Program-made: the position numbers and the translations under genes
The notes under the pieces: generated by a model
The model's input: only the letters and a program-made list of their open reading frames with translations
What the model was told of the DNA's origin: nothing
Databases searched by the model: none
Origin: Torpedo marmorata
Taxonomy: Eukaryota
Direction of reading: 5' to 3'
NCBI GenBank assembly: GCA_977017645.1
Contig: OZ360225.1
Coordinates: 30,008,001 to 30,072,000, forward strand
Length of the DNA stretch: 64,000 bases
In this document: one piece after another, positions 15,748-58,060 of the stretch
Layout: every line of letters starts with the position of its first letter
How positions within the stretch are numbered: the first letter of the stretch is position 1

Positions 15748-16660
15748 TGTTGTGGACCATGACTGACCATTTGGACTGCGGACGGTCAGCAGGAAGGATG
15801 AAGTCTTTTGGAGTATACACTGGGGCCACGTACTGAAAGAGTTAACTTCCCCAGCTACTTGGTGTACCCAGACAAGATACATTGTTGCACTCTTGGTGTA
15901 CCCAGACAGAGAGAGACCAGAGAGAGAGAGAGAGAAACAGACTGGACAAGATACATTTGTTTCACTTTTGCAAAAAGCAGGTGCAGATTTCTGCAGGAAA
16001 AGCAGACAGTTGTAAGTTGCAAAGGCTACAGGACACAGCCAAATCCAGGCTTGTGCAAGCCAGAGAAAATCACTGGCAGAAGAGCACATGGCCTCCTGTC
16101 TCAGAGAGAAATTCTGAGAAAAAGCAACTTCTGTGGAGAACAGGCGTGAGATCAGCGAGACTAGCTGTGAGATTCAAGCACACGCCTAAATCAGTGGTAT
16201 ACTGATCTGGAACTTGCAATTCTTATGAACATACAAGAAGGGGACTTCATCAGAGAAGAAAACAAGTATTTGTAAGCATAAACAGTCATTGTCTCTCTCC
16301 AACGTTCATTCAGAAGTACTTCGACCAGACACCGAGCTGAAGTTGAAGCCTGAACTTAGAGAGTGAATTTTGTAGACTGCATTATCCTTTTTTTTGACTG
16401 ACTTGTTTTTTATGACTGACCTGGGGTTTTTGGGGAAAGTTTTTCCATTTTTACATAAGGGTTGGGCACAGACTGTAATGGTCTGGGCTTTATACACACA
16501 CACACACACACACCTTTTAGATAAGAATAGTGTTTATAGACGTTTATAGTGGGGTTAATTGTTGTGAAATTATATGTTTACTTGTCTTTAATAAATAGTA
16601 ATTTCAATTTTACCCCTTTTGCATTGCGTCTTCTTTCGTTGTTGGTTTGGTTTTGTAACA
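15748..16660 (+). repeat. 5' LTR of Gypsy copy 1
   Basis: Direct repeat of 20759-21673 with about 10 substitutions and a few indels by eye. Confidence 0.93.
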
Positions 16661-16663
16661 AAT

Positions 16664-16686
16664 TGGGGGCTCGTCCTAGGATTTGA
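16664..16686 (+). promoter_or_regulatory. Primer-binding site, tRNA-Pro
   Basis: TGGGGGCTCGTCC matches the canonical tRNA-Pro PBS (TGGGGGCTCGTCCGGGAT), 3 nt after the LTR. Confidence 0.85.
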
Positions 16687-16780
16687 ATCAAAATCCATCT
16701 TGGTAATTGAAGGAATCCCAGTTTGGTTTAAGGCATTCCTTTTGTAAAGCTAGTGTGTGTGTAACAAAAAACCAGCAACA

Positions 16781-19700
16781 ATGGATGTAGTACAATTTTT
16801 GGAATCACCTGAACCTGATACTTTAAAAAAGACGAAAAAGGAACAGTTAGTGGCTATAGCAACAGTTGGGCATTGCTTCTGTAAAAGCATCTATGAAAAA
16901 GGCAGAGATTGGGAGAAAAATAGTCAAATACTATATAAAAGAAAAAAAATTTGAGGAGAGCGTGTTAGAGCAGTTTCCCAAGGGTAAACCTTCTGAAAAC
17001 ATACAATTGGAAATAAAGAAATTGGAATTGGAACAAAAGAAATTGGAGGCAGACAGGGAACAAAAGAACAGGGAATTGGAACAAAGGAAATTAGAATTGG
17101 AGATAGCCAGGGAACAGAAGAGATTAGACTAAGAGAACGAGGAGAAAAATAGGATATATATGCTGGAAAAGATAAAGTTGGAAAATGAGAGGAGACAAGA
17201 AGAGCGCCAAGATCAAATTCGTCATCCTGCTGAGGGGTTTTTGGCTAGTAGAGAAGTTAGGTTGGTTCCTCCATTTGAGGAGGCAGAAATAGATAAGTAC
17301 TTCCAACATTTTGAGAAGGTGGCTGTGAAATTGAAATGGCCACAAGACCAATGGTCTCTTATGTTACAAAGTGTAATAAAAGGAAAAGCTCAGCAAGCTT
17401 ATTGTACTCTTACCACAGAGCAAGCTGCTGATTATGAAACGGTGAAGAAGGCTATACTCCAGGCTTATGAGTTAGTTCCAGAGGCTTATAGACAGAAGTT
17501 TAGAAATTTAAAAAGATCAGCAACCCAATCTTATACAGAGTTTGCCTATGAAAAGGTTGTGTGTTTTGACAGGTGGTGCACATCTAAGGCAGTGAACAAT
17601 GATTACAATCAATTGAGAGAATTGATAATAATCGAGGAGATAAAAAGGTGTGTTCCTGAGGATATTAAGGTATACTTAGATGAAAAGGAGGTGAAAACTT
17701 GGCAAGATTCAGCTAAGTTAGCAGATGAATATGCTTTAACCCACAAGCCTAAGTGGACGTCAGGTAGAATTTTCCAAAAGGTCACTGTGGATAATCAGAA
17801 GCAAGTGGAAAGTAAATTTGGAAGTGGTGTTAAGGAAAGGGATGAAGGAAAGTGGAAAAGGGAAAACAATTCGGGTCCCATTTGCCACTACTGTAGGAAG
17901 GCTGGTCATATGCTAGCAAGCTGTCCAGTGTTGAAAAAGAAGAGAGAAAAGGATGCAACACCTAATGCTTGTATTCAGAGTGAGAAGATGCATTACAACC
18001 AGGAAGGAGATACATTTACTGACAAAGTTAGAGATGTATTTAAACCTTTTGTGACTGATGGTTTTGTTTCAGTTAAGGCAGGATCAAAACAAGTTCCAGT
18101 GAAAATCTTGCGAGATACTGGAGCTGCTCAGTCACTTGTGTTAGATAGTGTCTTGGAATTTTGTGAAGCTACTGACACCGGTGACATAAATTTAATTAAA
18201 GGAATTGGTGGTGATGTTGAGTCCATTCCTTTGCACTAAATAGTATTAGTCTCAGACTTGGTGGAAGGACCAGTTATAATAGGAGTGAGATCAGAGTTGC
18301 CAGTAGAAGGAGTCTCACTGTTGTTAGGCAATGACTTGGCTGAGGGTAAAGTAGTTCCTGCAGTGCGAATGACCACTAAGCCAGTCATTGACAAGTCAGA
18401 GAAAGACTCTGATATTTATCCGGCATGTGCCATAACCAGGGCCATGTCTAAGAAAAATGTCACTGTAGAAAAGGCAGAGGAAAATAACTTGGTAAAAGGA
18501 AAAGACACTGATAATCAAGAAAACTTGGAAAAGGTTGAGCTATCTCCTATGTTACACCCATCCACTGATAAGACACCTAAAGGCACAGATTTGTCACTAT
18601 CCCGACAGGAGTTAATAGCAAGGCAAAAGGACGATCCTGATCTTGCTGAGGTGAGCGATAAGGTTCTCTCTGAAGAGGAGATTAAAAAGGTGCCAGTAGG
18701 TTATTATGAAAAAGATGGGGTGTTGATGAGAAAGTGGAGACCACGTGATGTTCCTGCCAATGAAGAATGGGCAGTAGTGCAGCAGGTTGTGATCACTAAA
18801 GTATATAGGGATGCAATAATAACTTTGGCTCATAGTACACCCTTAGGTGGTCATCTTGGGGTGAAGAAAACTATACGCAAGATAATGAAACAATTTTATT
18901 GGCCCAGTTTAAGAAGGGAGATTGTAAGCTTTTGCCGGGCCTGTCACACTTGTCAGGTGGTGGGTAAACCTAATCAGGGTCCCCAGGTGGCACCCTTGCA
19001 ACCTATCCCTGCTTTCAGTGAGACTTTCTCGAGAGTAATTGTGGACTGTGTTGGCCCATTGCCCAAAACGGGGAATGAGTATTTGTTAACAATTATGTGT
19101 GCAGCCACCAGATTTCCAGAGGCCATTCCTCTGAGAAACATAAAAGCAAAGTCAATTGTAAAGGCTATGGTAAAGCTTTTCACCTTGGAAGGTTTGCCAA
19201 GGGAAATTCAATCAGATCAGGGCAGTAATTTCATGTCAGGCATTTTCCAACAAGTGGTTGATGGACTAGGAGTTAAACAGATTGTATCATCTGCGTACCA
19301 TCCAGAAAGTCAAGGGGCCTTGGAGAGGTTCCATTCGACTTTGAAAACCATGATTAGAACCTATTGTTGTGAGAAGGAAAAGGATTGGGATGGGGGGTTC
19401 ATTTGTTGTTATTTGCAGCGAGGGAGTCTGTCCAAGACTCACTTGGTTTTTGTCCATTCGAGTTAGTTTTCGGACATGAGGTGAGAGGTCCTTTAAGATT
19501 ATTAAAAGAACAGTGGATTAATCGTGATGTGCATTTAAATCTGTTAGATTATGTTTCCAAATTTAAGGATCGATTGTATAGGGCTTGTGAGATGGCAAAG
19601 GAGAATTTAAAGGCCACTCAACGGAGAATGAAGGTTTGGTATGATCGAAAGGTGAAGATGAGAACTTTTAAACCTGGTGAGAACGTATTAGTTCTGTTTC

Positions 19701-20626
19701 CCGTCCATTCAAATCCTCTTCGGGCTAGATTTTCGGGACCCTATAGAGTTAAGTCAAAAATTAATGAGGTCACCTATGTCATAGAAACACCTAATCGCAG
19801 ACGAGACACACAGGTCTGTCATGTGAATATGATTAAGCCATATTTTGAACAGGTGCCGCACAAAGGGACTGAAAATGTACCAGAGGTACTGGTTATTGAC
19901 AGGGGTAAGGAGGAGACAGGTAAAACCAGTTTCAGAGAGGGTCATGGGACTGTTAATTCTCGGAGTTATGTAGTAGGACAGGGGCAGTTGGTGCCAGTAG
20001 AGGCAAAGGTTGTCACTATTTCCGAGTTCCCTGTTCCAACTGGTAAGAAAACTCTGAGGAGGTTCCTGGGAATGATTGGCTACTACCGCAAGTTCTGTAA
20101 AAACTTTGCTGATCTTGCGCTCCCTCTCACAAATTTGCTTAGAAAGAAAGAGAAATTTGTATGGTCAACAGGTTGTCAGGAATCATTTGTCAAATTGAAA
20201 GCCATGTTATGCCACCAACCTGTGCTTAAGTCACCTAATTTAGAACAGTCGTTTTCTTTAGCCGTGGATGCCAGCGATGAAGCTGTGGGTGCAGTGCTGT
20301 TACAGAAGAAGAACGAAGAGGACATTGACCATCCGGTATCCTACTTCTCTAAGAAGTTCAATGATCATCAAAGGAATTATTCAACTATAGAGAAAGAGTT
20401 GTTGACTCTTGTGTTGGCTCTACAACACTTTGATGTGTATATCTGTACAGCTTAAAAACCACTCATAGTGTATACTGACCATAATCCATTGGTTTTTCTT
20501 TGTAAAATGAAAAATAAGAATCGACGGTTGTTGAATTGGAGTCTAATTTTGCAAGAATATAATTTGGTAATCACTCATATAAAAGGGAAAGATAATGTAA
20601 TTGCTGATTGTCTTTCTCGATGTTAA
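16781..20626 (+). pseudogene. Disrupted gag-pol of Gypsy copy 1
   Basis: SCAN-like capsid (YELVPEAYRQKFR), zinc knuckle CHYCRKAGHMLASC, protease LRDTGA, integrase HHCC + D,D,E (VDCVGP, SDQGSNF, QGALE), RNase H (AVDAS...YTDH...ADCLSR). Several stops/frameshifts; no YxDD. Confidence 0.9.
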
Positions 20627-20758
20627 ACTTTATCAATGAAAATAGTTCATATTTTGTATTTGTGGATGAACTTTGTAGATTTTGTTTATATTCTGACACC
20701 TCAATTACTTTCCTAAATTTTGTTCTTGCAGACCAAAATTTCCTTTGTGGGTGGGAGG

Positions 20759-21673
20759 TGTTATGGACCATGACTGACCATTTGGACTGCGGACGGTCAG
20801 CAGGAAGGATGAAGTCTTTTGGAGTATACACTGGGGCCAGGTACTGAAAGAGTTAACTTCCCCAGCTACTTGGTGTACCCAGACAAGATACATTGTTGCA
20901 CTCTTGGTGTACCCAGACAGAGAGAGACCAGAGAGAGAGAGAGAGACAGACTGGACAAGATACATTTGTTTCACTTTTGCAAAAAGCAGGTGCAGATTTC
21001 TGCAGGAAAAGCAGACAGTTGTAAGTTGCAAAGGCTACAGGACACAGCCAAATCCAGGCTTGTGCAAGCCAGAGAAAATCACTGGCAGAATAGCACATGG
21101 CCTCCTGTCTCAGAGAGCAATTCTGAGAAAAAGCAACTTCTGTGGAGAACAGGCGTGAGATCAGCGAGACTAGCTGTGAGATTCAAGCACACGCCTAAAT
21201 CAGTGGTATACTGATCTGGAACTTGCAATCCTTATGAACATACAAGAAGGGGACGTCATCAGAGAAGAAAACAAGTATTTGTAAGCATAAACAGTCATTG
21301 TCTCTCTCCAACGTTCATTCAGAAGTACTTCTACCAGACACTGAGCTGAAGTTGAAGCCTGAACTTAGAGAGTGAATTTTGTAGACTATTATCCTTTTTT
21401 TTGACTGACTTGTTTTTTATGACTGACCTGGGGTTTTTGGGGAAAGTTTTTCCATTTTTACATAAGGGTTGGGCACAGACTGTAATGGTCTGGGCTTTAC
21501 ACACACACACACACACAAACACACACCTTTTAGATAAGAATAGTGTTTATAGACGTTTATAGTGGGGTTAATTGTTGTGAAATTATATGTTTACTTGTCT
21601 TTAATAAATAGTAATTTCAATTTTACCCCTTTTGCATTGCGTCTTCTTTCGTTGTTGGTTTGATTTTGTAACA
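20759..21673 (+). repeat. 3' LTR of Gypsy copy 1
   Basis: Follows the PPT and ends TGTAACA before the GGTG TSD. Confidence 0.93.
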
Positions 21674-21938
21674 GGTGATTCTCTTGAACTGTCTCCTTAT
21701 CCCTGCTAAGAGTCTTTAACTTTATTAGTATATTGGAGGGGGAGGTTAATTCTCTTTAATGTTATTGTTCTTCTTTCGGGCGGCTCAGTGGAGGGGGAGG
21801 AACCTGCAGATGCAGCAACAGTTAAATATTTTTAAAGAATGTGACTGAAATAAAGTAAAATGCTTTTAGGTTTATATATTCATGCAAGGGAAGTTTGCTT
21901 AGTGTAAGTACAGTATAGTATTTTTGTCTTTTAAAGTA

Positions 21939-24043: not shown

Positions 24044-24972
24044 AGAATCAGAATCAGAATTTATTGTCATGAACAAGTCATGAAATTCGGTGTTTTGTGG
24101 CAGCATCATAGTGCAATTAACATTCATATTATAACCATCTTACGACATTACTATAAAAAATTATAAATAATAGTGCACGAAAAATAAGGCAGTGTCTTTG
24201 GTTCATTGATTATTCAGGAATCTGATGGCAGCGGGGAAGAAGCTGTCCTTGTGCCGTTGAGTGCTCGTCTTTAGGCTCCTGTACCTTTTTCCCAATGGTA
24301 GCAGAGTGAAGAGGGCATGGCCTGGGTGGTGGGGGTCTTTGAGGATAGAGGCTGCTTTTTTAAGACACCGCCTCATGTAGATGTCCTCGATGGTGTGAAG
24401 TTTGGTGCCTGTGATGTCACAGGCCGAGTTAACAACCCTCTGGAGTTTACTCTTGTCCTGAGAGTTGGCGACTCCATACCAGGCAGTGATGCAACCAGCC
24501 AGAATGCTCTCCACAGTACACCTGTAGAAGTTTACGAGTGTCTTCAGTGACATACCGAATCTCCTCAGACACCTCAAAGTATAGCCGCTGGCGAGCCTTC
24601 TTTGTGATTGCATCAACGTGGAGGCTCCAGGACAGATCCTCGGAGATGTTGACACCCAGGAATTTGAAGTTCTTGACCCTCTCCACTACTGAGCCCTCGA
24701 TGAGGACTGGGTCATGTTCCCCTGACTTCCTCCTGAAGTCCACAATCATATCCTTGGTTTTGCTGACGTTGAGCTCAAGGTTGTTGTCGTTAAATCATTC
24801 AACGAGCTGATCTATCTCCCTCCTGTACGCTTCCTCATTGCCGTTTGTGATTCTGTCGACAACTGTGGTGTCATCGGCAAACTTGTAGATGGCATTGGAA
24901 TTGTGCCTGGCCACACAGTCATGGGTGTATAACGAGTAGAGCAGTGGACTAAGCACGCATCCTTGGGGTGCA
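24044..24972 (-). mobile_element. 5'-truncated Rex1/Babar-type LINE
   Basis: 'KFADDTTVV', 'KTK.MIVDFRRK' and 'LKDPHHPGHALF' motifs with a (TCTGAT)n tail; nearly identical to 51467-52670. Confidence 0.88.
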
Positions 24973-30334: not shown

Positions 30335-30830
30335 AAAACACGAAAGTCTGCAGACACCGTGGTTGAAGTAAAAGCACAATGCTGGAGACACTCAGCAGGT
30401 CAAACAGTGTACTTTATATAGCAAAGACGAAGATACATAACCCACGTTTTGGGCTTGAGCTCTTCATCAAGGTATGGAAAAATGTTGGCAGGAGTCCGAA
30501 CAAAATGGTGGGGGGGAGGGGTGGGGGGAGTAGCATGGTCTCAAAGGCAGGAAGTAATAGGTGGATAAGGGAGGGAGGGCACAGCAGCAAGCAGGGGGAG
30601 GAGGGATGGCTCGGTGAATAGAGAGGGAAGGGGGTGGAGATCTGGGGGAAAGAAGACATAGAGAAAGGAAAGGGAGGGGGGAAGGAGAGTAGGTTAGCAG
30701 TAACTGGAGAAGTCAATGTTAATGCCATCCGGCTGGAGAATGCCCAGATGGAAAATCAAGTGTTGTTCCTCCAATTTATGGGTGGTCTTGGTGGGATAGT
30801 ACATGAGGCCATGGACAGACATGGGAGTGG
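30335..30830 (-). mobile_element. Penelope-like 3' fragment
   Basis: Same pLTR end as 3860-3925; hammerhead-like motif at ~30440-30472. Confidence 0.75.
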
Positions 30831-31287
30831 GATGCAGAGACAAAGGACTGGCTTATTTATAGAAATCACAATCATGATAAATGGGTCATTTACAGAATAG
30901 CAATTCCCATACCTATCGGGTGTCACAGGGATTGGTGCTGGATACCCAAGTATTTACAATCTATATTCATGACGGATTAAGGGATTGAGCACACTGTTGC
31001 CGAATTTGCTGATGATGGAAAGATTAGGGGGGTTACAAGTCCTGAGTGGCATGTACAGAGCCTGCAGAGATTGGTGGGTGAAATGAGTGGGCACAACAGA
31101 ATGTTATGTGGGAAAATGTATCAAAGAAAGAATGAAAGAACATTTTTATTTTAATGGATTGAGATGACAAAATATTAAGGATCTGGGAGGTTCTAATATA
31201 TGAAGCACAAAAAATTAACATGCAGGTACAGTGAATAATTAGGAAGGCCAATGGAATTTTGGCTTTTATTGAAACAGTTGTATAAAG

Positions 31288-32949: not shown

Positions 32950-35222
32950 GATAGACAATAGGTGCAGGAGTAGGCCATTCGGCCCTTCGAGCCAGCACCA
33001 CCATTCATTGTGATCATGGCTGATCATCCACTATCAGTACCCCGTTCCTGCCTTCTCCCCATATCCCTTGACTCCGCTATCTTTAAGAGCTCTATCTAAC
33101 TCTTTCTTGAAAGCATCCAGAGAATTGGCCTCCACTGCCTTCTGAGGCAGAGCATTCCACAGATCCACAACTCTCTGGGTGAAAAAGTTTTACCTCAACT
33201 CCGCTCTAAATGGTCTACCCCTTATTCTTAAACTGTGGCCTCTGGTTCTCGACTCCCCCAACATCGGGAACATGTTTCCTGCCTCTAGTGTGTCCAATCC
33301 CTTAATAATCTTATATGTTTCAATCAGAACGCCTCTCATCCTTCTAAATTCCAGTGTATTCAAGCCCCATCGCTCCAATCTTTCAACACATGACAGTCCC
33401 GCCATCCCGGGAATTAACCTCGTGAACCTACGCTGCATTCCCTCAATAGCAAGAATGTCCTTCCTCAAACCTGGAGACTAAAACTGCACATAATACTCCA
33501 GGTGTGGTCTCACCAGGGCCCTGTACAACTGCAGAAGGACCTCTTTGCTGTTATACTCAACTCCCCTTGTTGTGAAGGCCAACATGCCATTAGCTTTCTT
33601 CACTGCCTGCCATACCTGCATGCTTACTTTCAGTGACTGATGAACAAGGACACATAGATCTCGTTGTACTTCCCCTTTTCCTAACTTGACACCATTCAGA
33701 TAGTAATCTTCCTCCCTGTTCTTGCCACCAAAGTGGATAACCTCACATTTATCCACATTAAACTGCATCTGCCATGCATCTGCCCACTCACCCAACCTGT
33801 CCAAGTCATCCTGCATTCTCATTACATTCTTCTCACATTTCACACTGCCACCCAGCTTCGTGTCATCTGCAAATTTGCTAATGTTACTTTTAATCCCTTC
33901 ATCTAAATCATTAATGTATATTGTAAACAGCTGTGGTCCCAGCACCGAACCTTGCGTTACCCCACTAGTCACTGCCTGCCATTCTGAAAGGGACCCGTTA
34001 ATCCCTACTCTTTCCTGTCCGCCAACCAATTTTCTATCCATGTCAGTACCCTACCCCCAATACCATGTGCTCCAATTTTTCCCACTAATCTCCTATGTGG
34101 GACCTTAACAAAGCCTTTCTGAAAGTCCAGGTACACTACATCAACTGGCTCTCCCTTGTCCATTTTCATAGTTACATCCTCAAAAAATACCAGAAGATTA
34201 GTCAAGCATGATTTCCCCTTCATAAATCCATGCTGACTCGGACCGATCCTGTTACTGATATCCAAATGTACCGCTATTTCATCTTTTATAATTGACTCCA
34301 GCATCTTCAGCACTGATGTCAGGCTAACTGGTCTATAATTCCCTGTTTTCTCTCTCCCTCCTTTCTTAAAAGGTGGGATAACATTAGATACCCTCAAATC
34401 CGCAGGAACTGATCCTGAATCTATAGAACATTGGAAAATGATTACCAATGCGTCCATGATTTCTGGAGCCACCTCTTTAAGTACCCTGGGATGCAGACCA
34501 TCAGGCCCTGGGGATTTATCAGCCTTCAGTCCCATTAGTCGACCCAACACCATTTTCTGTCCAATGTGAATTTCCTGTCCAATGTGAATTTCCTTTAGTT
34601 CCTCCGTTACCCTAGGTCCTCTGTCCACTATTACATTTGGGAGGTTGTTTGTGTCTTCCCTAGTGAAGACAGATCCAAAGTACCTGTTCAACTCTTCTGC
34701 CATTTCCTTGTTCCCCATAATAATTTCACCCGTTTCTGTCTTCAAGGGCCCAACTTTGATCTTAACTAATTTTTTCCTCTTCACATACCTAAAGAAGCTT
34801 TTACTATCCTCCTTTCTATTCTTGGCTAGCCTACCTTCGTACCTTATCTTTTCTCCCTGTATTGCCTTTTTAGTTATCTTTTGTTGCTCTTTAAAAGTTT
34901 CCCAATCCTCTGGCTTCCCGCTCATCTTTGCTGTGTTATACTTCTCTTTTATTTTTAGTACTGTCCTTGACTTCCCTTGTCAGCCACGGTCGCCCCTTAT
35001 TCCCCTTAGAATCTTTCTTCCTCTTTGGAATGAACTGATCCTGCACCTTCTGTATTATTCCCAGAAATACCTGCCATTGTTGTTCCACTGTTATCTCTGC
35101 TAGAGTATCTTTCCAGTCAACTTTGGCCAACTCCTCCCTCATAGCTCCATAGTCCCCTTTGTTCAACTGCAATAATGACACTTCCGATTTTCCCTCCTCC
35201 CTCTCAAATTGTAGATTAAAAC
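32950..35222 (-). mobile_element. CR1 (HER1-like) LINE, 5'-truncated, with RT region
   Basis: ORFs 33190-33468, 33478-34041, 34005-34925 and 34936-35232 carry CR1 motifs (KSPGPDGLHP, GKSCLTNL, QGSVLGP, SKFADDTKL). Confidence 0.9.
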
Positions 35223-40500: not shown

Positions 40501-41304
40501 CTGAATTTCTCGTCTCATATATTCACAAAAGTCCTTTCTTTTCAATAAGAAGGAATCAAATCTCCAATTATATACAGTTTTTTCCTTCTCTGGAATTATA
40601 CATGTCATTAATAAAGGTGAATGATCTGAAATTAATCTTGCTTTATAAGATATCTGTGTTATTCTATCCTGAATTTGCGAAGATAATAAAAACAAATCTA
40701 TCCTAGAAAAAGAATTATGTCTAAATGAATAAAATGAATAATCTTTCTCTCTAGGTTTCAACTTTCTCCAAATATCCACCAAATTTAAATCCTCCATCAA
40801 ATTAATTATCTTTTTGACTATTTTTGGTCTAGCAGATGTTTTCGAAGTTTTATCCATAATTGGATTTAAATCTCCACCAATTAAAATATTCTCTTTAGCA
40901 TCTGATAGATGTAAAAAGGCATCTTGAATAAATTGTTCATCATCAGGATTTGACACATATAAATTCATAAGAGTCCAAAATTCTGAATAAATTTGACAAT
41001 ATATCAAAACATATCTTCCTGCCTTATCAATCACTGTCGATTGTATCTTAAAAGGTAACTTTTTATTTACTAAAATAGCTACTCCTCTAGCCTTAGAATT
41101 AAATGACGACGCTATAACATGTCCTACCCAGTCTCTTTTCAATTTTTGATGTTCAATATCTGTCAAGTGAGTTTCTTGTAAAAAAGCTATGTCTACTTTC
41201 AACTTTTTAATATATGCCAAAGTTCGTTTTCTTTTAATTGGATTATTAAGCCCATTTATATTAATACTTACTAGGTTTATACTTTTAGAATCTCCCATAA
41301 TCAA
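37518..41304 (-). CDS. L1 ORF2 (APE endonuclease, reverse transcriptase, C-terminal Cys-rich region), frameshifted near the C-terminus
   Basis: 1182-aa ORF: NINGL...LQETHL...GGD.N...SDH (APE); YRPISLLN, DAEKAFD, RQGCPLSP, LFADD (RT); CFRC...HCTWSC. Continues in ORF 37518-37814. Confidence 0.9.
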
Positions 41305-41486
41305 ATAATAACTGTTCCCTGTTAATCAAATCCACCAGCGTTTCCCTCTTTTTCTGTCGTAAATACATTTCCTCCTCAACTAGAATAAAGAATAGAAGTA
41401 AAAGAAAAGAAAACCCCCCTGTAAAAAACACAGGTCTTCTACTCCCAGTGCTACCCCCCTCCGTTGTTCGAGAAGCAGCTCTCGCT

Positions 41487-41820
41487 GCTAAGTCCAATGG
41501 TGGTCAGGCAACGTAAAGAATTTAATCCTGCAAAGGCTGTATTGTGGGAAAAAGGATATAAATTTTCGTTTAAGTATCCAGCAATTCTGAGGATTCAAGA
41601 TAATGGTGAGAAGTTTTTGTTATTCAAAGATCCTGATTTGGCTCTTTCTCACGCAAATGGTCTTCAACGTCGGCCAAGAAGTTTTCTGGATTTTGTTGAA
41701 CAACAAGATCGGAATAATCAAGCAAGTCGTGGAGAAATAGTGCCTGGTCCGTCAAGAGAAAATATTCAAATTCAAGCTGAAGAAGAATTGGAGGATTCAG
41801 TTATGCGAGGAGTTGATTGA
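41487..41820 (+). pseudogene. L1 ORF1 C-terminal domain, inverted relative to ORF2
   Basis: 'LSPMVVRQRKEFNPAKAVL..KGYKFSFKYPAILRI' is typical of the vertebrate L1 ORF1p C-terminus and lies inside the L1 TSDs. Confidence 0.8.
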
Positions 41821-44125
41821 AGTATATGTTGGACAAATATATATCTGTTGGAGGGAGGTGGTTTGTGGATACTTCTTCCGAAACAATCGTCAAAATTCTT
41901 CTTAAATGTTAAAATTGAGCCCACATTCACCACCTCAGCTGGCAGCTCGTTCCACACTCCCACCATTCTCTGTGTGAAGAAGTTCCCTTTCGTGTTCCCC
42001 CTAAACTTTTCCCCTTTCACCCTGAACCCATATCCTCTGGTTTGTATCTCACCTACCCTCAGTGGGAAAAAAAACCTACCTATTTTTACTCTGTCTATCC
42101 CCCTCATAATTTTAAATACCTTTATCAAATTGCCCCTCATTCTTCGACGCTCCAGGGAATAAAGTCCTAACCTGTTTAACCTTTCCCCGTAACTCAGTTC
42201 CTGAAGTCTGGGCAACATCCAAGTAAATCTTCTCTGCACTCTTTCAATCTTATTGATATCTTTCCTGTAGTTAGGTGACCAAAACTGCACACAATATTCC
42301 AAATTTGGCCTCACCAATGTCTTATACAACTTTACCATAACATCCCAACTCCTATACTCAATACTTTGATTTATGAAGGCCAATATGCCAAAAGCTCTCT
42401 TTACAACCCTATCCACCTGTGACGCCACTTTCAGGGAATTATGTATCTGTATTCCCAGATCCTTTTGTTCTACCGCACTCCTCAATCAGAGCCCTACCTT
42501 GATTTGGATGACAAATAACAGTGGACCCAGCATTGATCCTTGTGGAACACCACTGGTTACAGGCCATCTGTCTGAATAACAACCCTCCACTACCAACCTC
42601 TGGCTCCAATAGGCCATCTCACCCTGGATTCCATGCAATCAGCCTACAATGTGGGACCTTGCTAAAGTCCATGCAAATTATGTCCATTGCCCTACCCAAT
42701 CTTCTTGGTCACCTCCTCAAAAAACTTTATCAAATTCATGAGATGCGATCTCCCATGCATGTAGCCATACTGACTATCCCTCATCAGTCTTTGCCTTTCC
42801 AAATGCATGTAGGTCCTGTCCCTCAGAATCCCCAACAGTAACTTATCTACTGGACTGGTTACCTGGCTTGTTCTTACAACCTTTTTACAATACAGAACAT
42901 TAGCTACCCTCCAGTCTTCCTATACCTTGTGCTGATGCAAACATCTCTATAATGCACTTGCAATTTCTTCCCTAACTCTCCATAATGTCGTGGAATACAC
43001 GATCAGGCCCCATGGATTTATCTATCTTGTGTGTTTAAGAGACCTCCAGCACCTCCTCTTCTATAATGTGGACTCACTTCAAGACATCACTCTTCACTTG
43101 CCCAATTGTCCAAACATCCATATGTCTTCACAGTAAATACAGATTAGAAATACTCATTTAAAACCTCGCCTATCTCCTGTGGCTCCACATGTAGACCATC
43201 TTGTTGATCTTTAACGGTCCCTTTTAATATATTTGAAATGGATATGTGAAATGAGATTAAAGTGTGGAATAAACTCCCAGCAAGTGCTAATGCACGCTGA
43301 TTCATTCTTCTTTGGAAGAATAAGAAATACTGTTTTTAAAAATAGGTACGAGTGTTTAAATACTCAAGAGTGCAATTGAATTTGCTTGTTCAAACAGTGG
43401 AGATGACATTGTAGGGTATTCTGCAGTGCTTTTGTGACACCTGCTGATGGTCTTGCTTTGATATTCTGCAGAGTGAATTGAAAACAAGCAACTCTCAGTG
43501 GAGCTGGCATTAAATAAAAAGGGACTGTTTTTCATTAGGCAGAACATTTTAAGTTAGGCTGCCCAGTGGCACAGCTGGTAAGCTGTTGCTCCACAGCTCC
43601 AGCAAACCAGGTTTGTTCCTGACCTCGTGCAAACTTCACAATGTTCTCCCAGTAAATGCAGTTGATGTAGTGTACCTGGACTTTCAGAAAGCCTTTGATA
43701 AGGTCCCACAGTGGAGATTAGTGGGCAAAATGAGAGCACATGGTATTGGGGGTAGGGTACTGACATGGATAGAACATTGGTTGGCAGACAGGAAACAGAG
43801 TAGGGTTAAACAGGTCCCTTTCAGAATGGCAGGCAGTGTCTAGTGGGGTACCGTAAGGCTCGGTGCTGGGACCGCAGCTGTTTACAATATACACTAATGA
43901 TTTAGATTAGTGATTCCCAAAGTGGGCGGTGCCGCCCCCCTTGGGGCAGTGGAAAGATCCAAGGGGGCGGTGAGGAAAAAGGGGGCTGTCAGGGGTGGTG
44001 AGGAAAAAGGGGGCAGTCCGAACGTTTGTTTGTATTTTGGTTACGTGGTCTGGGATATTGGGCCTCAAAATTCCTGGCCGGGAAATGACAGGTGAATGAA
44101 TCCGCCGGGAGATCTGGCCACAATC

Positions 44126-45468
44126 CTACTGCAGTGGAGTGGACCATCGCCATACATTGGTCCACCCCTTCTGACACTGCAGCTCCACCACTGCTTCCTG
44201 CAGGGCATCGATGGATGCGTGCAGGGCCTCGGTGTGGCCTGGAGGAGGCGCCAACGGGGGATGGCCCAACCCGTGCCCTTTGCGGACGAATCCCATTCCA
44301 TCGCTCAACTTCCCTGCACAATGCTCCTTCCAGATTGCATACAGGGCGAAGGCGAATATCGCATTGATCCGGTCCTTAGCTAGCCCTACACTCTTTTCTA
44401 CCTTCCGGGCCCGAACACGCACGGCCCTCTCCAAGTACTCCAGCCCTTCCAGCAGTCTCCCTCGATATCTTACCAACCGCTGGACAGATTAAAGACAGCA
44501 CAATCCCCTTCAGATAGGGAAGGATGGTGGTGCCCAGGTGTCCCGCCACTGCGGCGGTAATCCAGAGCCCTCAGGGGACTCACGGCCGTGGGCGCCCTCA
44601 TAGTCCAGTAACTAGAGCCCAGTCACTAAGGGACCTAATCACATCCTCTACCGAACGCCACTCTGGCTCTGCCCGCGACTGTAAATCCCATTGCAGCAAG
44701 GAGGGGCCCGTCACCCGGACAGCAGCTTCTTCCCGGACCAACAGGGATGAGTTACCCTCCATGGCCTCAGACGGCATCCGCAGGCCGTTCTTCATGGCTT
44801 CCTTACTGGATAACCCACCCAGATACCTGCTTCCGATGGGGTACGCTCACGCCGGTACCAACCGCGTCCCAGATCTGGAGTAGCCACATGGCCACAGCTC
44901 AAACTACTGTACATTGACCAGCCTGCATGCGAGCTGTGTGCCTTTATTCTCTCTGGCGCAGGTTTCCCCATCAGGGAGCAACGCTGCAGCAGCGTTTACA
45001 CCTCAAATTTTAACTGGGTGATCTCGTGTTCCTTTCGTCGCAAGGCTTTGTGTCGGTGCCAAAGAAAGACTGTCAGCAGCCAAAAGATCCCTCTATGGCT
45101 CCCCTTACATCCCGTGAACTCCGATTATTTGAGAAGGGACACAAGATGGTGGCCAATCTCCTCCCCTTATAAGTCCACACTATCTGACCATTCCATCGGC
45201 TTGCGATGCTCCTCCAGCACGCTAGCCAGACTGCCGAACCCAGCAGTATCTTTGATCGACCACGATACTCTGACCCCTGTACACGTGGGGCCCTTCATTT
45301 TAGCCTTTTGCCAGAACATCGCTCCCACCCAATTGCCCGGTTGTTTTTCCTTGAACCATTCTCGTAGCGGCAATCTGTGGTAGGAAAAGAAATTCGTAGG
45401 GTTAAAATAGTGACAATCCTCCCTACGTGTCAGTACGAAACGGTGAACTTTATATACACACGACACCA
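44126..45468 (-). pseudogene. Decayed retroviral gag-like fragment (class III/ERV-L-like) inside the hAT element
   Basis: Stop-interrupted frames resembling ERV-L Gag blocks (see findings); possible PBS TGGTGTCGTG at 45459-45468. Similarity judged by eye. Confidence 0.5.
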
Positions 45469-45572
45469 ATACGTAACAGGAGACACACATTCACCCACAT
45501 GCAAACCAGTAATGTTCTGATACAAGTTTGCAAAACAATACCAATGTTAATTCGTGGGTTCATACAATCAGT

Positions 45573-47553: not shown

Positions 47554-47810
47554 TGGGCGGCACGGTTAGCATAGCGGTTAGCGCAACGCTGTTACAGCGC
47601 CAGTGATCAGGACCGGGATCTGAATCCCGTGCTATCTGTAAGGAGTTTGTACGTTCTCCCTGTGTCTCTGTGGGTTTCCTCCAGGGGCTCTGGTTTCCTC
47701 CTACTATTTGAAATGTACTGGGTTAATTGAGTGTAATTGGGCAGCACAGGCTCGTGGGCTGAAATAGCCTGTTACCGTGCTGTATGTCTAAATTTAAAAA
47801 AAATTAAATT
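47554..47810 (+). mobile_element. V-SINE (HE1-like)
   Basis: Same family as 14892-15150. Confidence 0.85.
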
Positions 47811-50098: not shown

Positions 50099-50838
50099 AA
50101 GAGGTAGTTTTCCACAAATGTGGGATTCCTCTGTCCCCATTCCTTCTCATTTTCTTCTCTTTCCCCTCCCTGCCCTATCTACCTGACCGTCACCCACACC
50201 TTCCTTCCTCCATCATCCCACACCCTTCCCTTCCTTCCTCCTATGAGCTATAACCCTCTGCCTCCTCCTCCAAACATCTCCAAGATTTTTATTTTTTTCC
50301 CCATTTCTTCTCCCTCCTCCTTCCTCCCCACCCTTTTTATTCAGGCATCAGCCCATTTCTTGCTATTCCTGATGAAGGGTTTCAGCCCAAAATTTCAACT
50401 ATATTTTGCCTTCCATGGATGGATTTCCAACATCTTCCATCTCTCTCTCGTTTTCCTTGGATTTTAATTCCTTATATTCCAAAGAACCAATATGCATGAA
50501 TTCCAGATCAACAAAATTGAATTTTGCTTCCAGAACCCATGCAGAAACTTGACAAAAATTCCAAAATATCAAAACGTGCTTCAAAGATGAAAGTTATCAT
50601 TCAATGAGTCACAGAATAGAAACAAGCCATTTGGTCCACTGAGTCTTAACTGACCATCAAGCACCCATTTACAGTATGCCTACACTGACCCATTTTACCC
50701 TCCCCAGATTCTACCCTTCACCTACACATTAGGGGGCATCTACAGTGCCCAATTAACATAATAACATGCACGCCTTTGAGATGTGGGAAGAAACCAGTGA
50801 ACTTGGAGAAAACCCATGCATTTACAGGGAGAACATTG

Positions 50839-53800
50839 TGTTATGGACCATGAACTGACCATTTGAACTGCGGACGATCAGCAGGAAGGATGAAGTCTTT
50901 TGGAGTACACACTGGGACCTGGAACTGAAAGAGTTAACTTGCCCAGGACTTCTTATACTTACAGAGAGAGACACCAGAGGGAGACAAACTGTGGAAAAAA
51001 GATACTTGGTTGCACTTTTGAAAAGGCAGGTGAAGACCTCTGCTAAAAAGGCCTTGAAGTTCAGTTGTGGAGGACTGAATCAGTGGCAGGTTGGAGTTGC
51101 AAAGGCGGGAGAACCCAGCAAAATCCAGGCTTGTGCATCCCAGAGGAAAAGGCTGGGAGAAGAGCACAGAGCCTCCTGAAACAGCAAAATCCAGCCTTGT
51201 GCATCCCAGGGGAAAATGCTGGGAGAATAATACAGGGCCTAGATAATTCAGCAAAATCCTGAGTTGAAGGCAACTTTTGTGAAGAACAAGCGTGAGATCA
51301 GCGAGACAGGCTGTGAGATCCAAGTATAAGCCTCAATCTAAAACTGATTTGGAGTCGCAATCCTTGTGAATGTACCAGAAGGGAAAGTCATCAGAGAAGA
51401 AAAGCAGGCCAAGCATTCGTAAGCATAAACAGTCATTGTCTCTCTCTCTCCAACGTTCATTAAGAATCAGAATCAGAATTTATTGTCATGAACAAGTCAT
51501 GAAATTCAGTGTTTTGCGGCAGCATCATAGTGCAATTAACATTCATATTAACCATCTTACGACATTACTATAAAAATTATAAATAATAGTGCACAAAAAG
51601 TAAGGCAGTGTCTTTAGTTCATTGATTATTCAGGAATCTGATGGCAGCGGGGAAGAAGCTGTCCTTGTGCCATTGAGTGCTCGTCTTTAGGCTCCTGTAC
51701 CTTTTTCCCGATTGAAGCAGAGTGAAGAGGGCATGGCCTGGGTGGTGGGGGTCTTTGAGGATAGAAGCTGCTTTTATAAGACACCGCCTCATGTAGATGT
51801 CCTCGATGGAGTGAAGTTTGGTGCCTGTGATGTCACAGGCCGAGTTAACAACCCTCTGGAGTTTACTCTTGTCCTGAGAGTTGGCGCCTCCATACCAGGC
51901 AGTGATGCAACCAGCCAGAATGCTCTCCAGGGTACACCTGTAGAAGTTTACGAGAGTCTTTGGTGACATACCGAATCTCCGCAGACACCTTACAAAGTAT
52001 AGCCGCTGACGAGCCTTCTTTGTGATTGCATCAACGTGGATGCTCCAGGACAGATCCTCGGAGATGTTGACACCCAGGAATTTGAAGTTCTTGACCCTCT
52101 CCACTACTGAGCCCTCGATGAGGACTGGGTCATGTTCCCCTGACTTCCTCCTGAAGTCCACAATCATCTCCTTGGTTTTGCTGACGTTGAACTCAAGATT
52201 GTTGTCATTACACCATTCAACGAGCTGATCTATCTCCCTCCTGTACGCTTCCTCATTGCCGTTTGTGATTCTGCCGACAACTGTGGTGTCATCGGCAAAC
52301 TTGTAGATGGCATTGGAATTGTGCCTGGCCACACAGTCATGGTGTATAACGAGTAGAGCAGTGGACTAAGCACGCATCCTTGGGTTGCGCCTCTGTTGAT
52401 AATCAGTGAGGAGGAGACGTTGTTTCCAATTCGTACCGACTGTGGTCTTCCGATGAGAAAGTCAAGGATCCAGTTGCAGAGTGGGTACAGAGGCCTAGAG
52501 TTTGTAGCTTCTTGACCAGCACTGAGGGAATAATGGTATTGAAGGCCGAGCTGTAGTCGATGAAGAGCAGCCGTATGTATGAATTGCTGTTTTCGAGGTG
52601 ATCCAGAGCTGAGTGGAGAGCCAGTGATATTGCATCTGCTGTGGAGCGATTGCGACGATAGGCGAATTGCAGAAGTCCTTCTTGCCAGCACACATAGAGA
52701 GTGAATCTTTGTGGACTGCATTTTTGAGACTGACTTGTTTTTATTACTGACCTGGGGGTTTTGGGGAAAGTTTTCCATTTTTACATGAGGGCCGGGCACA
52801 GACTGTAATGGTCTGGGCTTCACACACACAGACACACACACAGACACACACACAGACACACACACAGACACACACACACACACACGTGTTTATAGACGAA
52901 GAATAGTGTTTATAGACGTTTATAGTGGGGTTAATTGTTGTGAAATTATATGTTTAATTGTCTTTAATAAATATAAATTTCAATTTTATCCCTTTTGCAT
53001 TGCGTCTTCTGTAGTTGCTGGTTTGAAATTTTAACAAAATTGGGGGTTCGTCCTTGGATTTGAATCAAGATCCATCTTGGTAATTGAAGGAATCCCAGGC
53101 TGGTTTAAGACATTCCTTTTGTAAAGCTATTTAAAAGCTAGTGTGCGTGTAACAAAAAACCAGCAACAATGGATGTAGAAAATTTTTTGGAATCACCTGA
53201 ACCTGATATTTAAAAAAGGCTAAAAAGGAACAGTTAGTGGCTATAGCAACAGAGTTTGGCATTGCTTCTGTAAAACCATCAATGAAAAAGGCAGAGATTG
53301 GGGAAAAATTGCCAAATACTATATAAAAGGGAAAAAGTTTGAGGAGAGCGTGTTAGAGCAGTTTCCCAAGGGTCAACCTTCTGAAAACATACAGTTGGAC
53401 GAAAGAAATTGGAATTGGAATTGGAACAAAAGAGATTAGACTTGGAGGCAGCCAGGGAACAAAAGAGATTAGATATGGAATTGGAACAAAAGAGATTAGA
53501 CTTAGAGAGAGAGGAGAAAATTAGGCAATATGAGCTGGAAAAGATTAAGTTGGAAAATGAGAGGAGACAAGAAGAGCACCAAGATCAAATTCGTCATCCT
53601 GCTGAGGGGTTTTTGGCTAGTAGAGATGTTAGGTTGGTTCTTCCATTTGAGGAGGCAGAAATAGATAAGTACTTCCAGCATTTTGAGAAGGTGGCTGTGA
53701 AATTAAAATGGCCACAAGACCAATGGTCTCTTATGTTACAAAGTGTAATAAAAGGAAAAGCTCAGCAAGCTTATTCTACTCTTACCACGGCGCAAGCTGC

Positions 53801-56800
53801 TGATTATAAAACGGTGAAAAAGGCTATACTCCAGGCTTATGAGTTAGTTCCAGAGTCTTATAGACAGAAGTTTAGAAATTTAAAAAGATCAGCAACCCAA
53901 TCTTACACAGAGTTTGCCTATGAAAAGGTTGTGTGTTTTGACTGGTGGTGCACATCCAAGGCGGTAAACAATGATTACAATCAATTGAGAAAATTGATAA
54001 TAATTGAGGAGATAAAAAGGTGTGTTCCTGAGGATATTAAGGCATACTTAGATGAAAAGGAGGTGAAAACTTGGCAAAATTCAGCTAAGTTAGCAGATGA
54101 ATATGCTTTAACCCATAAGCCTAAGTGGATGTCAGGAAGAATTTTCCAAAAGGTCACTGTGGATAATCCCAAGCAAGTGGAAAGTAAATTTGGAAGTGGT
54201 GTTAAGGAAAGGGATGATGGAAAGAGGAAAAGGGAAAACCCTTCGGGTCGCATTTGCCACTACTGTAGGAAGGCTGGTCATATGCTAGAAAGCTGTCCAG
54301 TGTTGAAAAAGAAGAGAGAAAAGGATGCAACACCTAATGCTTGTTTTCAGAGTGAGAAGAGGCATAACACTCAGGAAGGAGATAAAGCTACTGGCAAAGT
54401 TAGGGATGTATTTAAACCTTTTGTGACTGATGGTTTTGTTTCAGTTAAGGCAGGAGCAAAGCAAGTTCCAGTGAAAATCTTGCGAGATACTGGAGCTGCT
54501 CAGTCACTTATGTTAGATTGTGTCTTGGAATTTTGTGAAGCTACTGACACCGGTGAAATGAAGAATTGGGGGTGATGTTGAGTCCATTCCTTTTTGCACA
54601 AAATAGTGTTGGACTGGGCCTTGGTGGAAGGACCTGTTATAATAGGAGTGAGATCAGAGTTGCTAGTGGAAGGAGTCTCACTTTTGTTAGGCAATGACTT
54701 GGCTTAGGGTAAAGTAGTTCCTCCAGTGCGAATGACCACTAAGCCAGTCATTGATAAGTCAGAGAAAGACTCTGATATTTATCCGGCATGTGCCATAACC
54801 AGGGCCATGTCTAAGAAAAATGTCACTGTAGAGAAGGCAGTGGAAACTAAATTGGTGAAAGAAAAAGTCAGTGATATTCAAGAACACCTGGAAAAGGTTG
54901 AGCAATCTCCTGTGTTACACCCATCCACTGATAAGACACCAAAAGGCACAGATTTGTCACTATCCCGACAGGAGCTAATAGCAAGGCAAAAGGACGATCC
55001 TGATCTTGCTGAGGTGAGGGATAAGGTTCTCTCTGAAGAGGAGATTAAAAAGGTGCCAGTGGGTTATTATGAAAAAGATGGGGTGTTGATGAGTTAGTGG
55101 AGACCATGTGATGTTCCTGCCAATGCAGAATGGGCAATAGTGCAGCAGGTTGTGATCCCTAAAGTATATCGGGATGCAATAATAACTTTGGCTCATAGCA
55201 CACCCTTAGGTGGTCACCTTGGGGGTGAAGAGAACTATACGGAAGATAATGAAACAATTTTATTGGCCCAGTTTGAGAAGGGAGATTGTAAGCTTTTGCC
55301 GGGCCTGTCACACTTGTCAGGTGGTGGGTAAACCTAATCAGGGTCCCCCGGTGGCACCCTTCCAACCTATCCCTGCTTTCAGTGAGCCTTTCTCGAGAGT
55401 GATTGTGGACTGTGTTGGCCCATTGCCCTAAACCAAAGCGGGGAATGAATATTTGTTAACAATTATGTGTGCAGCCACCAGATTTCCAGAGGCCATTCCT
55501 CTGAGAAACATTAAAGCAAAAACAATTGTAAAGGCTATGGTAAAGTTTTTCACCTTGGTAGGTTTGCCAAGGGAAATTTCATCAGATCAGGGCAGTAATT
55601 TCATGTCAGGCGTTTTCCAACAAGTGGTTGATGGACTGGGAGTTAAACAGGTTGTATCCTCTGTGTACCATCCAGAAAGTCAAGGGGCCTTGGAGAGGTT
55701 CCATTCGACTTTGAAAAACATGATTAGAACCTATTGTTGTGAGAAGGAAAAGGATTGGGATGAGGGGGGTTCATTTGTTGTTATTTGCAGCGAGGGAGTC
55801 TGTCCAAGAATCACTTGGTTTTAGTCCATTCGAGTTAGTTTTCGGACATGAGGTGAGAGGTCCTTTAAGGTTATTAAAAGAACAGTGGATTAATAGTGAT
55901 GTTAGATTATGTTTCAAAATTTAAGGATCGGTTGCATGGGGCTTGTGAGATGGCAAAGGAGACTTTAAAGGCCACTCAACAGAGAATGAAGGTTTAGTAT
56001 GATCGAAAGGCCAAGATGAGAACTTTTAAACCTGGTGAGAACGTATTAGTTCTGTTTGCCATCCATTCAAATTCTCTTGGGGCTAGATTTTCAGGACCCT
56101 ATAGAGTTAAAGTCAAAAATTAATGATGTCAGCTATGTCATAGAAACACATAATCGCAGATGAGACACACAGGTCTGTCATGTGAATATGATTAAGCCAT
56201 ATTTTGAACAGGTGCCGCAGAAAGAGACTGAACATTTACCACAGGTGCTGGTTATTGATCGGTGTAAGGAGGAGACAGATAAAACCAGTTTCAGAGAGGG
56301 TCATGGGACTGTTAATTCTCTGGGTTATGTAGTAGGACAGGGGCAGTTGGCGCCAGCAGAGGCAAAGGTTGTGACTATTTCCGAGTTCCCTGTTCCAACT
56401 GGTAAGAAAACTCTGAGCAGGTTCCTGGGAATGATTGGCTACTACCGCAAGTTCTGTAAATAAACTTTGCAGATCTTGCGCTCCCTCTCACAAATTTGCT
56501 TAGAAAGAGAGAAAAATTTGTATGGACGACAGGTTGTCAGGGAGCATTTGTCGAATTGAAAGCCATGTTATGCCACCAACCTGTGCTTAAGTCACCTAAT
56601 TTAGAACAGTCGTTTTCTTTAGCCGTGGATGCCAGCGATGAAGCTGTGGATGCGGTGCTGTTGCAGAGGAAGAACGAAGAGGACATTCACCATCCTACTT
56701 CTCGAAGAAGTTCAATGATCATCAAAGGAATTATTCAACCATAGAAAAAGAGTTGTTGGCTCTTGTTTTGGCTTTGCAACACTTTGATGTTTATATCTGT

Positions 56801-58060
56801 ACAGTTCAAAAACCACTCATAGTGTATACTGACCATAATCCATTGGTTTTTCTTTGTAAAATTAAAAATAAGAATTGACCGTTGTTGAAATGGAGTTTAA
56901 TTTTGCAGGAATATGATTTAGTAATAACACATATAAAAGGGAAAGATAATATAATTGCTGATTGTCTTTCTAGATGCTGAACTTTATAAATGAAAATAGT
57001 TCATATTTTGTGTTTATGGATGAACATTGTGGGTTTTGTTTATATTGTAACACCTCAATTTCCAAAGTTTTTTTCTTGCAAACCAACATTTTCTTTGTGG
57101 GTGGGAGGTATTATGGACCATGACTGACCATTTGGACTGCAGACGGTCAGCAGGAAGGATGAAGTATTTTGGAGTCCACACTGGGACCTGGTACTGAAAG
57201 AGTTAACTTTCCCAGGACTTCTTGTACCTACAGAGAGAGACACCAGGGGGAGACAAACTGTGGAAAAAAGATACTTGGTTGCACTTTTGAAAAGGCAGGT
57301 GAAGACCTCTGCTAAAAAGGCCTTGAAGTTCAGTTGTGGAGGACTGAATCAGTTGCAGTTTGGAGTTGCAAAGGCGGGAGAACCCAGCAAAATCCAGGCT
57401 TGTGCATCCCAGAGGAAAAGGCTGGAGAAGAGCACAGAGCCTCCTGAATCTGCAAAATCCAGGCTTGTGCATCCCAAGGGAAAAGGCTGGGAGAAATACA
57501 AGGCCTTGGTGATTCAGCAAAATCCTGAGTTGAAGGCAACTTTTGTGAAGAACAGGCGAGAGATCAGCGAGACAGGCTGTGAGATCCAAGTACACGCCTC
57601 AATCCAAAACGGATTTGGAGTCGCAATCCTTGTGAATGTACCAGAAGGGAAAGTCATCAGAGAAGAAAAGCAGGCCAAGCATTCGTAAGCATAAACAGTC
57701 ATTGTCTCTTTCTCCAACGTTCATTAAGAAGTCCTTCTTGCCAGCACACAGAGCTGAATTTGGACCCTGAACATAGAGAGTGAATTTTTGTGGACTGTAT
57801 TTTTGGGACTGAGTTGTTTTTATGACTGACCTGGGGGTTTTGGGGAAGGTTTTCCATTTTTACATGAGGGTTTGGCAGAGACTGTAATGGTCTGGGCTTT
57901 ACACACACACACACACTTTTTAGATAAGAATAGTGTTTATAGACGTTTATAGTTGGGTTAATTGTGAAATTATATGTTTAATTGTCTTTAATAAATATAA
58001 ATTTCAATTTTACCCCTTTTGCGTTGCGTCTTCTGTCGTTGCTGGTTTGAATTTGTAACA
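50839..58060 (+). mobile_element. Gmr1-type Gypsy LTR retrotransposon, copy 2 (same RT-core deletion)
   Basis: LTRs 50839-53036 (containing a LINE insert) and 57109-58060; TSD ATTG (50835-50838, 58061-58064); PBS at 53041; disrupted gag-PR-IN-RH at ~53169-56980. Confidence 0.92.
51467..52670 (-). mobile_element. Rex1/Babar LINE inserted into the 5' LTR of Gypsy copy 2
   Basis: RT motifs [15 protein letters not shown] and KFADD; AGAA repeated on both sides; absent from the 3' LTR. Confidence 0.9.

Follow-up and report, generated by a model that had tools for sequence, protein, structure and literature searches.

An in-frame deletion of the reverse transcriptase core carried by most junction-bearing copies of a Gmr1-type Gypsy family in Torpedo marmorata

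How can a retrotransposon that lacks the polymerase core of its own reverse transcriptase (RT) multiply? The question is raised by a 64,000-nt stretch of the Torpedo marmorata genome (GenBank assembly GCA_977017645.1, contig OZ360225.1, positions 30,008,001 to 30,072,000 of the forward strand; the whole stretch is called the window here), which holds two Gmr1-type Gypsy retrotransposons with paired long terminal repeats (LTRs) and with integrase (IN) before RNase H (RH). A first-pass annotation, made from the letters alone, had described this gene order together with the LTRs, a primer-binding site (PBS), a polypurine tract (PPT) and different target-site duplications (TSDs; GGTG and ATTG), and Pfam matches and our coordinates agree with that description. 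The explanation that we favor, with a probability of about 85%, is that one 771-nt in-frame deletion of the RT core arose in a Gmr1-type Gypsy element, that more than 10,000 copies carry it versus about 2,500 complete ones, and that the deleted form is copied by the RT of its complete sisters in shared particles.

Passages of published work on the Gmr1 clade place IN upstream of RT (PMC8220671) and describe, for Gmr1-like elements, a SCAN-like capsid followed by protease (PR), IN and RT/RH (bioRxiv 10.1101/2025.03.03.638093) in a single gag-pol frame (PMC11117352). The window family shares the IN-first order, the SCAN-like capsid and the single frame. Specifically, the Pfam domains of element 1 run from SCAN-like capsid and zinc knuckle through integrase H2C2/rve/p58-C to RT_RNaseH_2/RT_RNaseH. 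The SCAN-like capsid (PF02023) matches have E = 1.7e-11 and 4.9e-10. Deleted copies have a single gag-pol frame without env, stop-free for up to 1,268 codons, and in element 1 only ~130 nt separate the RH stop from the 3′ LTR. No RVT_1 match was present in element 1 at E ≤ 0.1 in Pfam. The best named RT-complete pol homolog, P0002 from Pristis pectinata, is 73% identical over the thumb/RNase H part; tblastn with P0002, like the Pfam order, puts IN 5′ of RT/RH, and its alignment to element 1 jumps from residue 916 to residue 1197, skipping YIDD at 1157. Six-frame searches of both elements found no RT palm and no [YF]xDD encoded by pol, as the first reading had stated for YxDD; the five matches all lie on the minus strand and include the FADD of an inserted long interspersed element (LINE). 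The nearest solved relative is Ty3 RT (E = 4e-27); the Pfam set is the same in the top homologs.

The join was placed by RT-complete sisters from the same genome, which are 89–97% identical to the deleted form on either side. Deleted copies were sampled at 40 of the first 100 listed loci (every second of the first 80) and complete copies at each of the first 100 undeleted loci listed, on contig C1 in both cases; one locus (L122) was left out as a duplicate of L121. The same 771 nt (257 codons, in frame), including the YIDD motif, are missing from 40/40 sampled deleted copies. The removed cassette comprises ~50 linker residues plus the fingers and palm, with YIDD at cassette codon 215, and it is flanked by GGTCATGGGAC upstream and GGACATGC(T/G)AC downstream, which agree at 8–9 of 11 letters and stand in the same codon phase (GHGT and GHAT). 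The junction translates in one frame in both window copies, as had been claimed, although the join had been set before GHGT (~19938 and ~56298) and in fact follows it (Table 1), GHGT being the upstream repeat. Nor does the linker run directly into the thumb, as first described: the last palm hairpin, with the primer-grip YLG, is kept but decayed, reading SRS in element 1. A spliced intron was rejected, the deleted ends showing no GT..AG on either strand in any microhomology register.

Genome-wide, 10,293 dispersed sites on both strands match the 33-nt junction exactly, and the undeleted allele (the same 29 nt, then undeleted letters) has 2,515 exact matches; both counts are lower bounds that favor less decayed copies, and reversed-pattern controls gave 0 matches. 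The deleted form is thus ~80% of junction-bearing copies, ~4-fold more numerous than its complete sisters. Deleted copies retain LTRs, PBS and PPT, and 16 of the 22 with both LTRs are bounded by exact 4-bp TSDs, 15 of them different. Divergence between the LTRs of deleted copies is 0.2–4.8%, with a median of 2.2%. The proposal that the deletion is older than both window insertions is supported; the lineage has amplified massively, as the 10,293 exact junctions and the many TSDs show, and the junction is not confined to two loci shaped by local gene conversion. There are also RT-complete relatives that match in LTR ends, PBS and PPT, as the 2,515 undeleted junctions attest. Contigs from two public sequencing runs (X2 and X6; two organisms, two studies) span the junction; because they do so without a gap, it is not an assembly product, and it may be shared between species.

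The bases immediately right of the join argue for one main origin. At +6 from the join, A is found in 39/40 deleted versus 1/83 complete copies; at +9, C in 32/40 versus 0/84; at +12, G in 17/40 versus 0/84; and at +14, A in 24/40 versus 1/85. These four changes are nested and all alter amino acids (I>N, Y>S, L>R and G>S), eroding the leftover YLG. Fresh deletions from complete elements would lack them, and the deletion is, by this marker pattern, of one main origin, although 1/40 deleted copies has a complete-type junction side and the 771-nt deletion may occasionally have recurred. The deletion was likely caused by a template jump of the RT, which would have passed once from GGTCATGGGAC to GGACATGC(T/G)AC, the two in-phase repeats, losing 257 codons and leaving a single gag-PR-IN-thumb-RNase H frame.

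Beyond the junction, deleted and complete copies share their variation. The mean allele-frequency gap between the two forms was 0.56–0.66 within −50 to +30 nt of the junction and 0.06–0.27 in all other bins, and four gametes were present at 158 of 182 common non-CpG columns (one locus has a mis-projected right side). In gag, IN and RH trees, deleted and complete copies are interleaved along a ladder, and constraining 33 deleted copies to be monophyletic relative to 20 complete ones was rejected for gag, the one tree so constrained, by the approximately unbiased (AU) test (p = 0.00076). Individual copies show the same mixture. One RT-complete copy carries all 13 “young” markers, which are spread over gag, PR, IN and the 3′ end and typify the youngest deleted copies, next to a complete-type junction side, and old deleted copies carry 0–2 of the 13 with a deleted-type junction side. 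Four RT-bearing copies (L031–L034) have deleted-type sequence right of the junction, with apparent crossovers inside the microhomology; these mosaics were found by a degenerate right-side motif that uses deleted-type bases, whereas the complete total was counted from the left-side allele.

A separate clonal deleted lineage is rejected by the four gametes, the interleaved trees and the gag AU test. Part of the idea of a non-autonomous family holds, in that the form amplified without an RT core, but it is not a separate clonal family, alleles being shared beyond ~50 nt. The deleted and complete forms behave like a single recombining population in which the RT cassette is polymorphic. Co-packaging and template switching would be the simplest cause of the exchange: deleted and complete RNAs would enter the same particles, the helper RT would copy both, and template switching would exchange everything beyond ~50 nt from the junction, leaving the RT cassette as a present/absent allele. 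The same signature, four gametes with linkage at the boundary, has been used for the cattle ERVK C and D types (PMC10924933).

The complete copies look fit to serve as helpers. Of 99 complete-allele copies, 69 have an intact YIDD and 21 are gapped at that position. RT variants common to at least 5 complete copies number 11 nonsynonymous to 16 synonymous (N:S), versus 286:73 among singletons (p = 3e-5), which indicates purifying selection, and shared variants in gag, PR, IN and RH are likewise short of amino-acid changes. Outside the gag repeat, no frameshift is common to 3 or more complete copies. The sampled complete copies have no disabling change in common in gag, PR, IN or RH, and the catalytic residues that were checked are kept; the RNase H D-E-D is kept in nearly all sampled copies. 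The suggestion that the two forms are a complementation pair is not borne out, because complete copies show no function missing: they keep every domain, and their RT is under purifying selection. On this evidence the dependence is one-way, the deleted form relying on its complete sisters and being likely copied by their RT. The first-pass proposal that a helper RT mobilized the deleted copies is, given sisters that match in LTR ends, PBS and PPT, very likely correct.

The balance between the two forms may have shifted with time. Copies with more divergent LTRs score lower on the 13 markers (rho −0.68, n = 32, p = 2e-5), and at least 3 of the four 3′ markers are present in 17/35 deleted versus 5/74 complete copies (p = 1e-6). 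Scaled by the genome counts, the deleted:complete ratio is 2.3:1 in the rest and about 29:1 (95% range 13–79) in the younger haplotype class, the latter figure being inflated by “young” markers that were chosen for differing between the forms in the first sample. The LTR ages of deleted and complete copies overlap. A shorter form that gains with time would account for a rise from about 2:1 in the older class to about 29:1 in the younger.

Do the proteins of the deleted element matter? Among 42 deleted copies, N:S of shared variants relative to singletons was 0.11 in capsid, 0.31 in nucleocapsid–PR, 0.27 in the IN core and 0.20 in RH, with non-significant ratios of 0.46–0.67 in the spacer, IN C-terminus and thumb. 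Seven catalytic positions were checked, each kept in 34–39 of 35–39 deleted copies. Shared stops and frameshifts number 2 versus 93 shared synonymous variants, compared with 153 versus 264 among singletons (p = 4e-14), and since they are so scarce, the source elements of the deleted copies had open frames; a stop-free frame of at least 1,190 codons survives in 4 of 41 deleted copies. Two further RT deletions have amplified (seen at L144, L183, L184 and L137), of 609 nt with 38 exact matches and of 615 nt with 18. Both are in frame, which makes 3/3 amplified RT deletions in frame (1 in 27 by chance). Single-copy deletions include an in-frame one of 153 nt and an out-of-frame one of 1,327 nt. 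These patterns favor a need in cis for translation, at least of Gag. The deleted RNA would then be semi-autonomous, likely requiring an open frame either for packaging by its own Gag or for escape from nonsense decay.

Several observations weigh against the explanation that we favor. Co-packaging and RT supplied in trans are read from sequence patterns, DNA-level gene conversion would likewise yield four gametes, and every sampled locus lies on one contig. The selection signal on gag, PR, IN and RH is confounded, because recombination can import it from complete copies; the depletion of amino-acid changes that the suggested comparison of N:S in gag, IN and RH did reveal can therefore not by itself show that deleted-form proteins are used. 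Variants private to deleted copies stand at 1 N:6 S in capsid (p = 0.0004) and at a neutral-like 19:8 elsewhere (p = 0.36), a “private” label that is soft since young complete copies are undersampled. Large deletions other than the amplified ones above are often in frame whether amplified or not (8/12, leaving aside L085, where the 849 nt take in an indel private to the ruler, and L087, where 75 nt are lost within a repeat), and the in-frame 153-nt deletion is single-copy, so that reading frame is a weak argument. As to the shift with time, of the 5 young complete copies only 2 belong to the 60 loci added later; among deleted copies, LTR ages show no significant separation by the four 3′ markers alone (p = 0.11); and LTR-pair ages of deleted and complete copies differ at p = 0.068 (medians 2.2%, n = 23, and 3.2%, n = 9; L128 and L141, with no TSD and LTRs >11% apart, were dropped from the dating).

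Rival accounts of how the deletion came to be shared fare poorly. That the same 771 nt were lost repeatedly at a hot spot, with no self-propagating deleted lineage, would fit the 8–9/11-nt repeat flanking the cassette, the non-monophyly of deleted copies and the one deleted copy with a complete-type junction side, but the near-exclusive +6 base and the nested +9, +12 and +14 changes largely refute recurrence as the main source, which we regard as very improbable. Still less credible, to the point of being virtually dismissed, is the idea that local gene conversion, duplication of a segment, splicing of an intron or misassembly produced the junction. Local duplicates or tandems do occur at a few sampled loci (L121/L122, L106/L107 and L183/L184); however, this account is refuted by the 10,293 dispersed matches on both strands, the distinct TSDs, LTR ages of 0.2–4.8%, deleted ends without GT..AG on either strand and contigs of two independent runs that bridge the junction.

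The remaining rivals concern what the deleted element contributes. It is possible, though we think it rather doubtful, that only the cis signals of its RNA count and that the open frame and conserved domains are by-products of in-phase microhomology and of refreshing by recombination. Such a pure hitch-hiker would explain the neutral-like 19:8 outside capsid, the frequency of in-frame deletions even at single copy (8/12) and the fading of linkage within ~50 nt of the deletion; it sits badly with the near absence of shared stops and frameshifts despite the large excess of deleted copies over helpers in the young class, with the 1 N:6 S of capsid-private variants and with amplified RT deletions in frame 3/3 times. 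A division of labor is less likely again: the Gag, PR, IN and thumb-RNase H of the deleted element would be used in shared particles and boost both forms, RT being a scarce public good. It would take its support from the seven catalytic positions kept and from the low ratios in capsid, the PR region, the IN core and RH. There is also a precedent for RNase H in trans, Ty3 RT being described as drawing its polymerase and RNase H activities from different subunits, with RNase H from the non-polymerizing one (PMC5371799), so that such a role for the deleted element is conceivable by analogy. Yet subunit B of Ty3 RT is a full-length chain and no thumb-RNase H fragment, complete copies lack nothing, which makes the dependence one-sided, the conservation is accounted for by recombination with complete copies, and the sole deletion-linked stretch has gathered only amino-acid changes, the four eroding YLG. 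The strongest version, in which a rare RT allele (about 1/30 in the youngest class) would supply polymerase and the majority Gag, protease, integrase and thumb-RNase H in trans, the pair out-replicating the complete element alone, seems to us equally unlikely.

One-way copying of the deleted form by complete sisters, our preferred reading, has parallels. The mouse intracisternal A particle (IAP) type I-delta-1 carries a deletion that spans gag to pol and not the polymerase core alone, and it is an endogenous retrovirus (ERV), not a Gypsy element. Saito et al. in 2008 reportedly described it as an in-frame fusion whose translation matters. Like the deleted form here, this internal-deletion type is trans-complemented, by full-length IAP, and a cis effect has been reported (as cited in PMC10924933). 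The cattle ERVK[2-1-LTR] elements, with an autonomous C-type and a defective D-type, likewise have a defective majority (85% in cattle versus 80% here), four-gamete recombination, near-perfect linkage only beside the boundary and a defective form that outcompetes its helper (PMC10924933). The D-type, however, is an ERV whose center is replaced by other sequence, with no intact open reading frame and about 400 loci (PMC10924933), whereas the Gypsy element here lost only the polymerase core, in frame, kept gag, PR, IN and RH, and exceeds 10,000 copies. In plants, BARE2/BARE1, the Angela n/a sub-families, Sabrina-WHAM/Wilma and Quinta/Cereba are likewise pairs in which a high-copy non-autonomous partner co-evolves with an autonomous helper, some of the semi-autonomous partners being proposed to contribute Gag (PMC9744471; PMC11302176). 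As far as these papers describe them, the plant partners have lost only Gag or the whole of pol, or their coding sequence is degenerate, and in Angela it is the LTRs that show exchange, the internal domains being monophyletic (PMC9744471; PMC11302176); here the whole internal region is exchanged except for a block of <100 nt. By analogy, the system would work like known trans-complemented deletion derivatives, differing in that only the polymerase core is lost, in frame, in a vertebrate Gmr1 element that exceeds 10,000 copies and exchanges the rest of its sequence almost freely.

Published passages on the Gmr1 clade describe no form comparable to the ~80% of junction-bearing copies here that are without RT fingers and palm. 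The literature searched, mostly open papers without Repbase or supplements, contained no account of a Gmr1- or Gypsy-type family defined by an in-frame deletion of the polymerase alone, and an earlier description is possible. The family offers a natural data set of >12,000 datable copies in which an essential retroelement enzyme segregates as a present/absent allele. Cheater–helper dynamics (the lowest helper share before a stall), template-switch rates in vivo and LTR cis-preference could be measured from this one genome. The deleted form could make up ~1% of the 6.2-Gb genome (10,293 × 5.9 kb, from a minimum count and with many of the copies truncated), and Gypsy surveys that count by RT domain would overlook ~80% of the family.

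The features of the two window elements are collected in Table 1. Their internal regions are 90.5% identical and their LTR middles 68–82%, and each element is separately broken by private stops and frameshifts. The PBS of element 1 resembles the tRNA-Pro type.

Table 1. Coordinates of the two RT-deleted elements within the window
Feature	Position	Strand	Remark
Element 1	15748–21673	+	TSD GGTG
Element 1 left TSD GGTG	15744–15747	+	right copy 21674–21677
Element 1 5′ LTR (TG...CA)	15748–16660	+	97.8% identity to 3′ LTR
Element 1 PBS	16664–16681	+	sampled copies of both forms have this motif 3′ of the 5′ LTR
Element 1 gag (coiled-coil repeat, SCAN-like capsid, CCHC knuckle) and PR (DTG)	16782–18400	+	private frameshift and stops
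Element 1 IN (H2C2, DDE core, p58-C/SH3), 5′ of RT	18620–19850	+	private 1-nt frameshift
Element 1 deletion junction	19940–19951, join between 19950 and 19951	+	771 nt missing versus RT-complete sisters
Element 1 deletion-linked block, decayed primer-grip remnant	19951–19985	+	nested changes nearly exclusive to deleted copies
Element 1 RT thumb and RNase H	19986–20626	+	private stop at 20453
Element 1 PPT	20749–20758	+	
Element 1 3′ LTR	20759–21673	+	
Element 2	50839–58060	+	TSD ATTG
Element 2 left TSD ATTG	50835–50838	+	right copy 58061–58064
Element 2 5′ LTR, interrupted by LINE RT fragment	50839–53036	+	first 626 nt 94.6% identity to 3′ LTR
Element 2 gag-PR-IN	53170–56280	+	degraded: private stops and frameshifts
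Element 2 deletion junction	56299–56310, join between 56309 and 56310	+	breakpoint identical to element 1
Element 2 primer-grip remnant, thumb, RNase H	56310–56980	+	degraded
Element 2 3′ LTR	57109–58060	+	PPT before it

Within the family, the LTR middle is much more variable than the LTR ends or the internal region, LTR lengths range from about 745 to 960 nt with 65-nt repeats, and deleted and complete copies have several LTR types in common. The N-terminal coiled-coil repeat of gag (17033–17133 in the window) differs in length from copy to copy, the differences being mostly multiples of 3 nt, and the RNase H region around 20331 is a hot spot of varied 7–35 nt deletions that are independent in deleted and complete copies. 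At L068, L078, L087, L106/L107 and L141, tandem arrangements were seen, with one LTR followed by the start of another internal region. The LINE RT fragment inside the 5′ LTR of element 2 (~1.2 kb, about 51467–52691, minus strand) is 97% identical to a copy at about 24156–24874.

Other repeats share the window, the coding ones being identified by eye. On the minus strand, a 1,189-codon open frame at 37756–41325 resembles an L1/Tx1-type endonuclease-RT ORF2, with a likely ORF1 remnant at 41425–41820, and a 380-codon frame at 12551–13693 resembles a pogo/Tigger-type transposase. CR1-like LINE RT fragments lie at 33478–34979 (minus strand) and 59590–60723 (plus strand). GIY-YIG-like (Penelope-like) fragments are found at 2775–3595 and at about 8717–9298, 10944–11498 and 30400–30900, the one at 2775–3595 being an overlapping inverted pair with near-identical 153-aa frames. 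Two related repeat copies, at about 43989–45490 and 61081–62640, contain several overlapping short frames on both strands.

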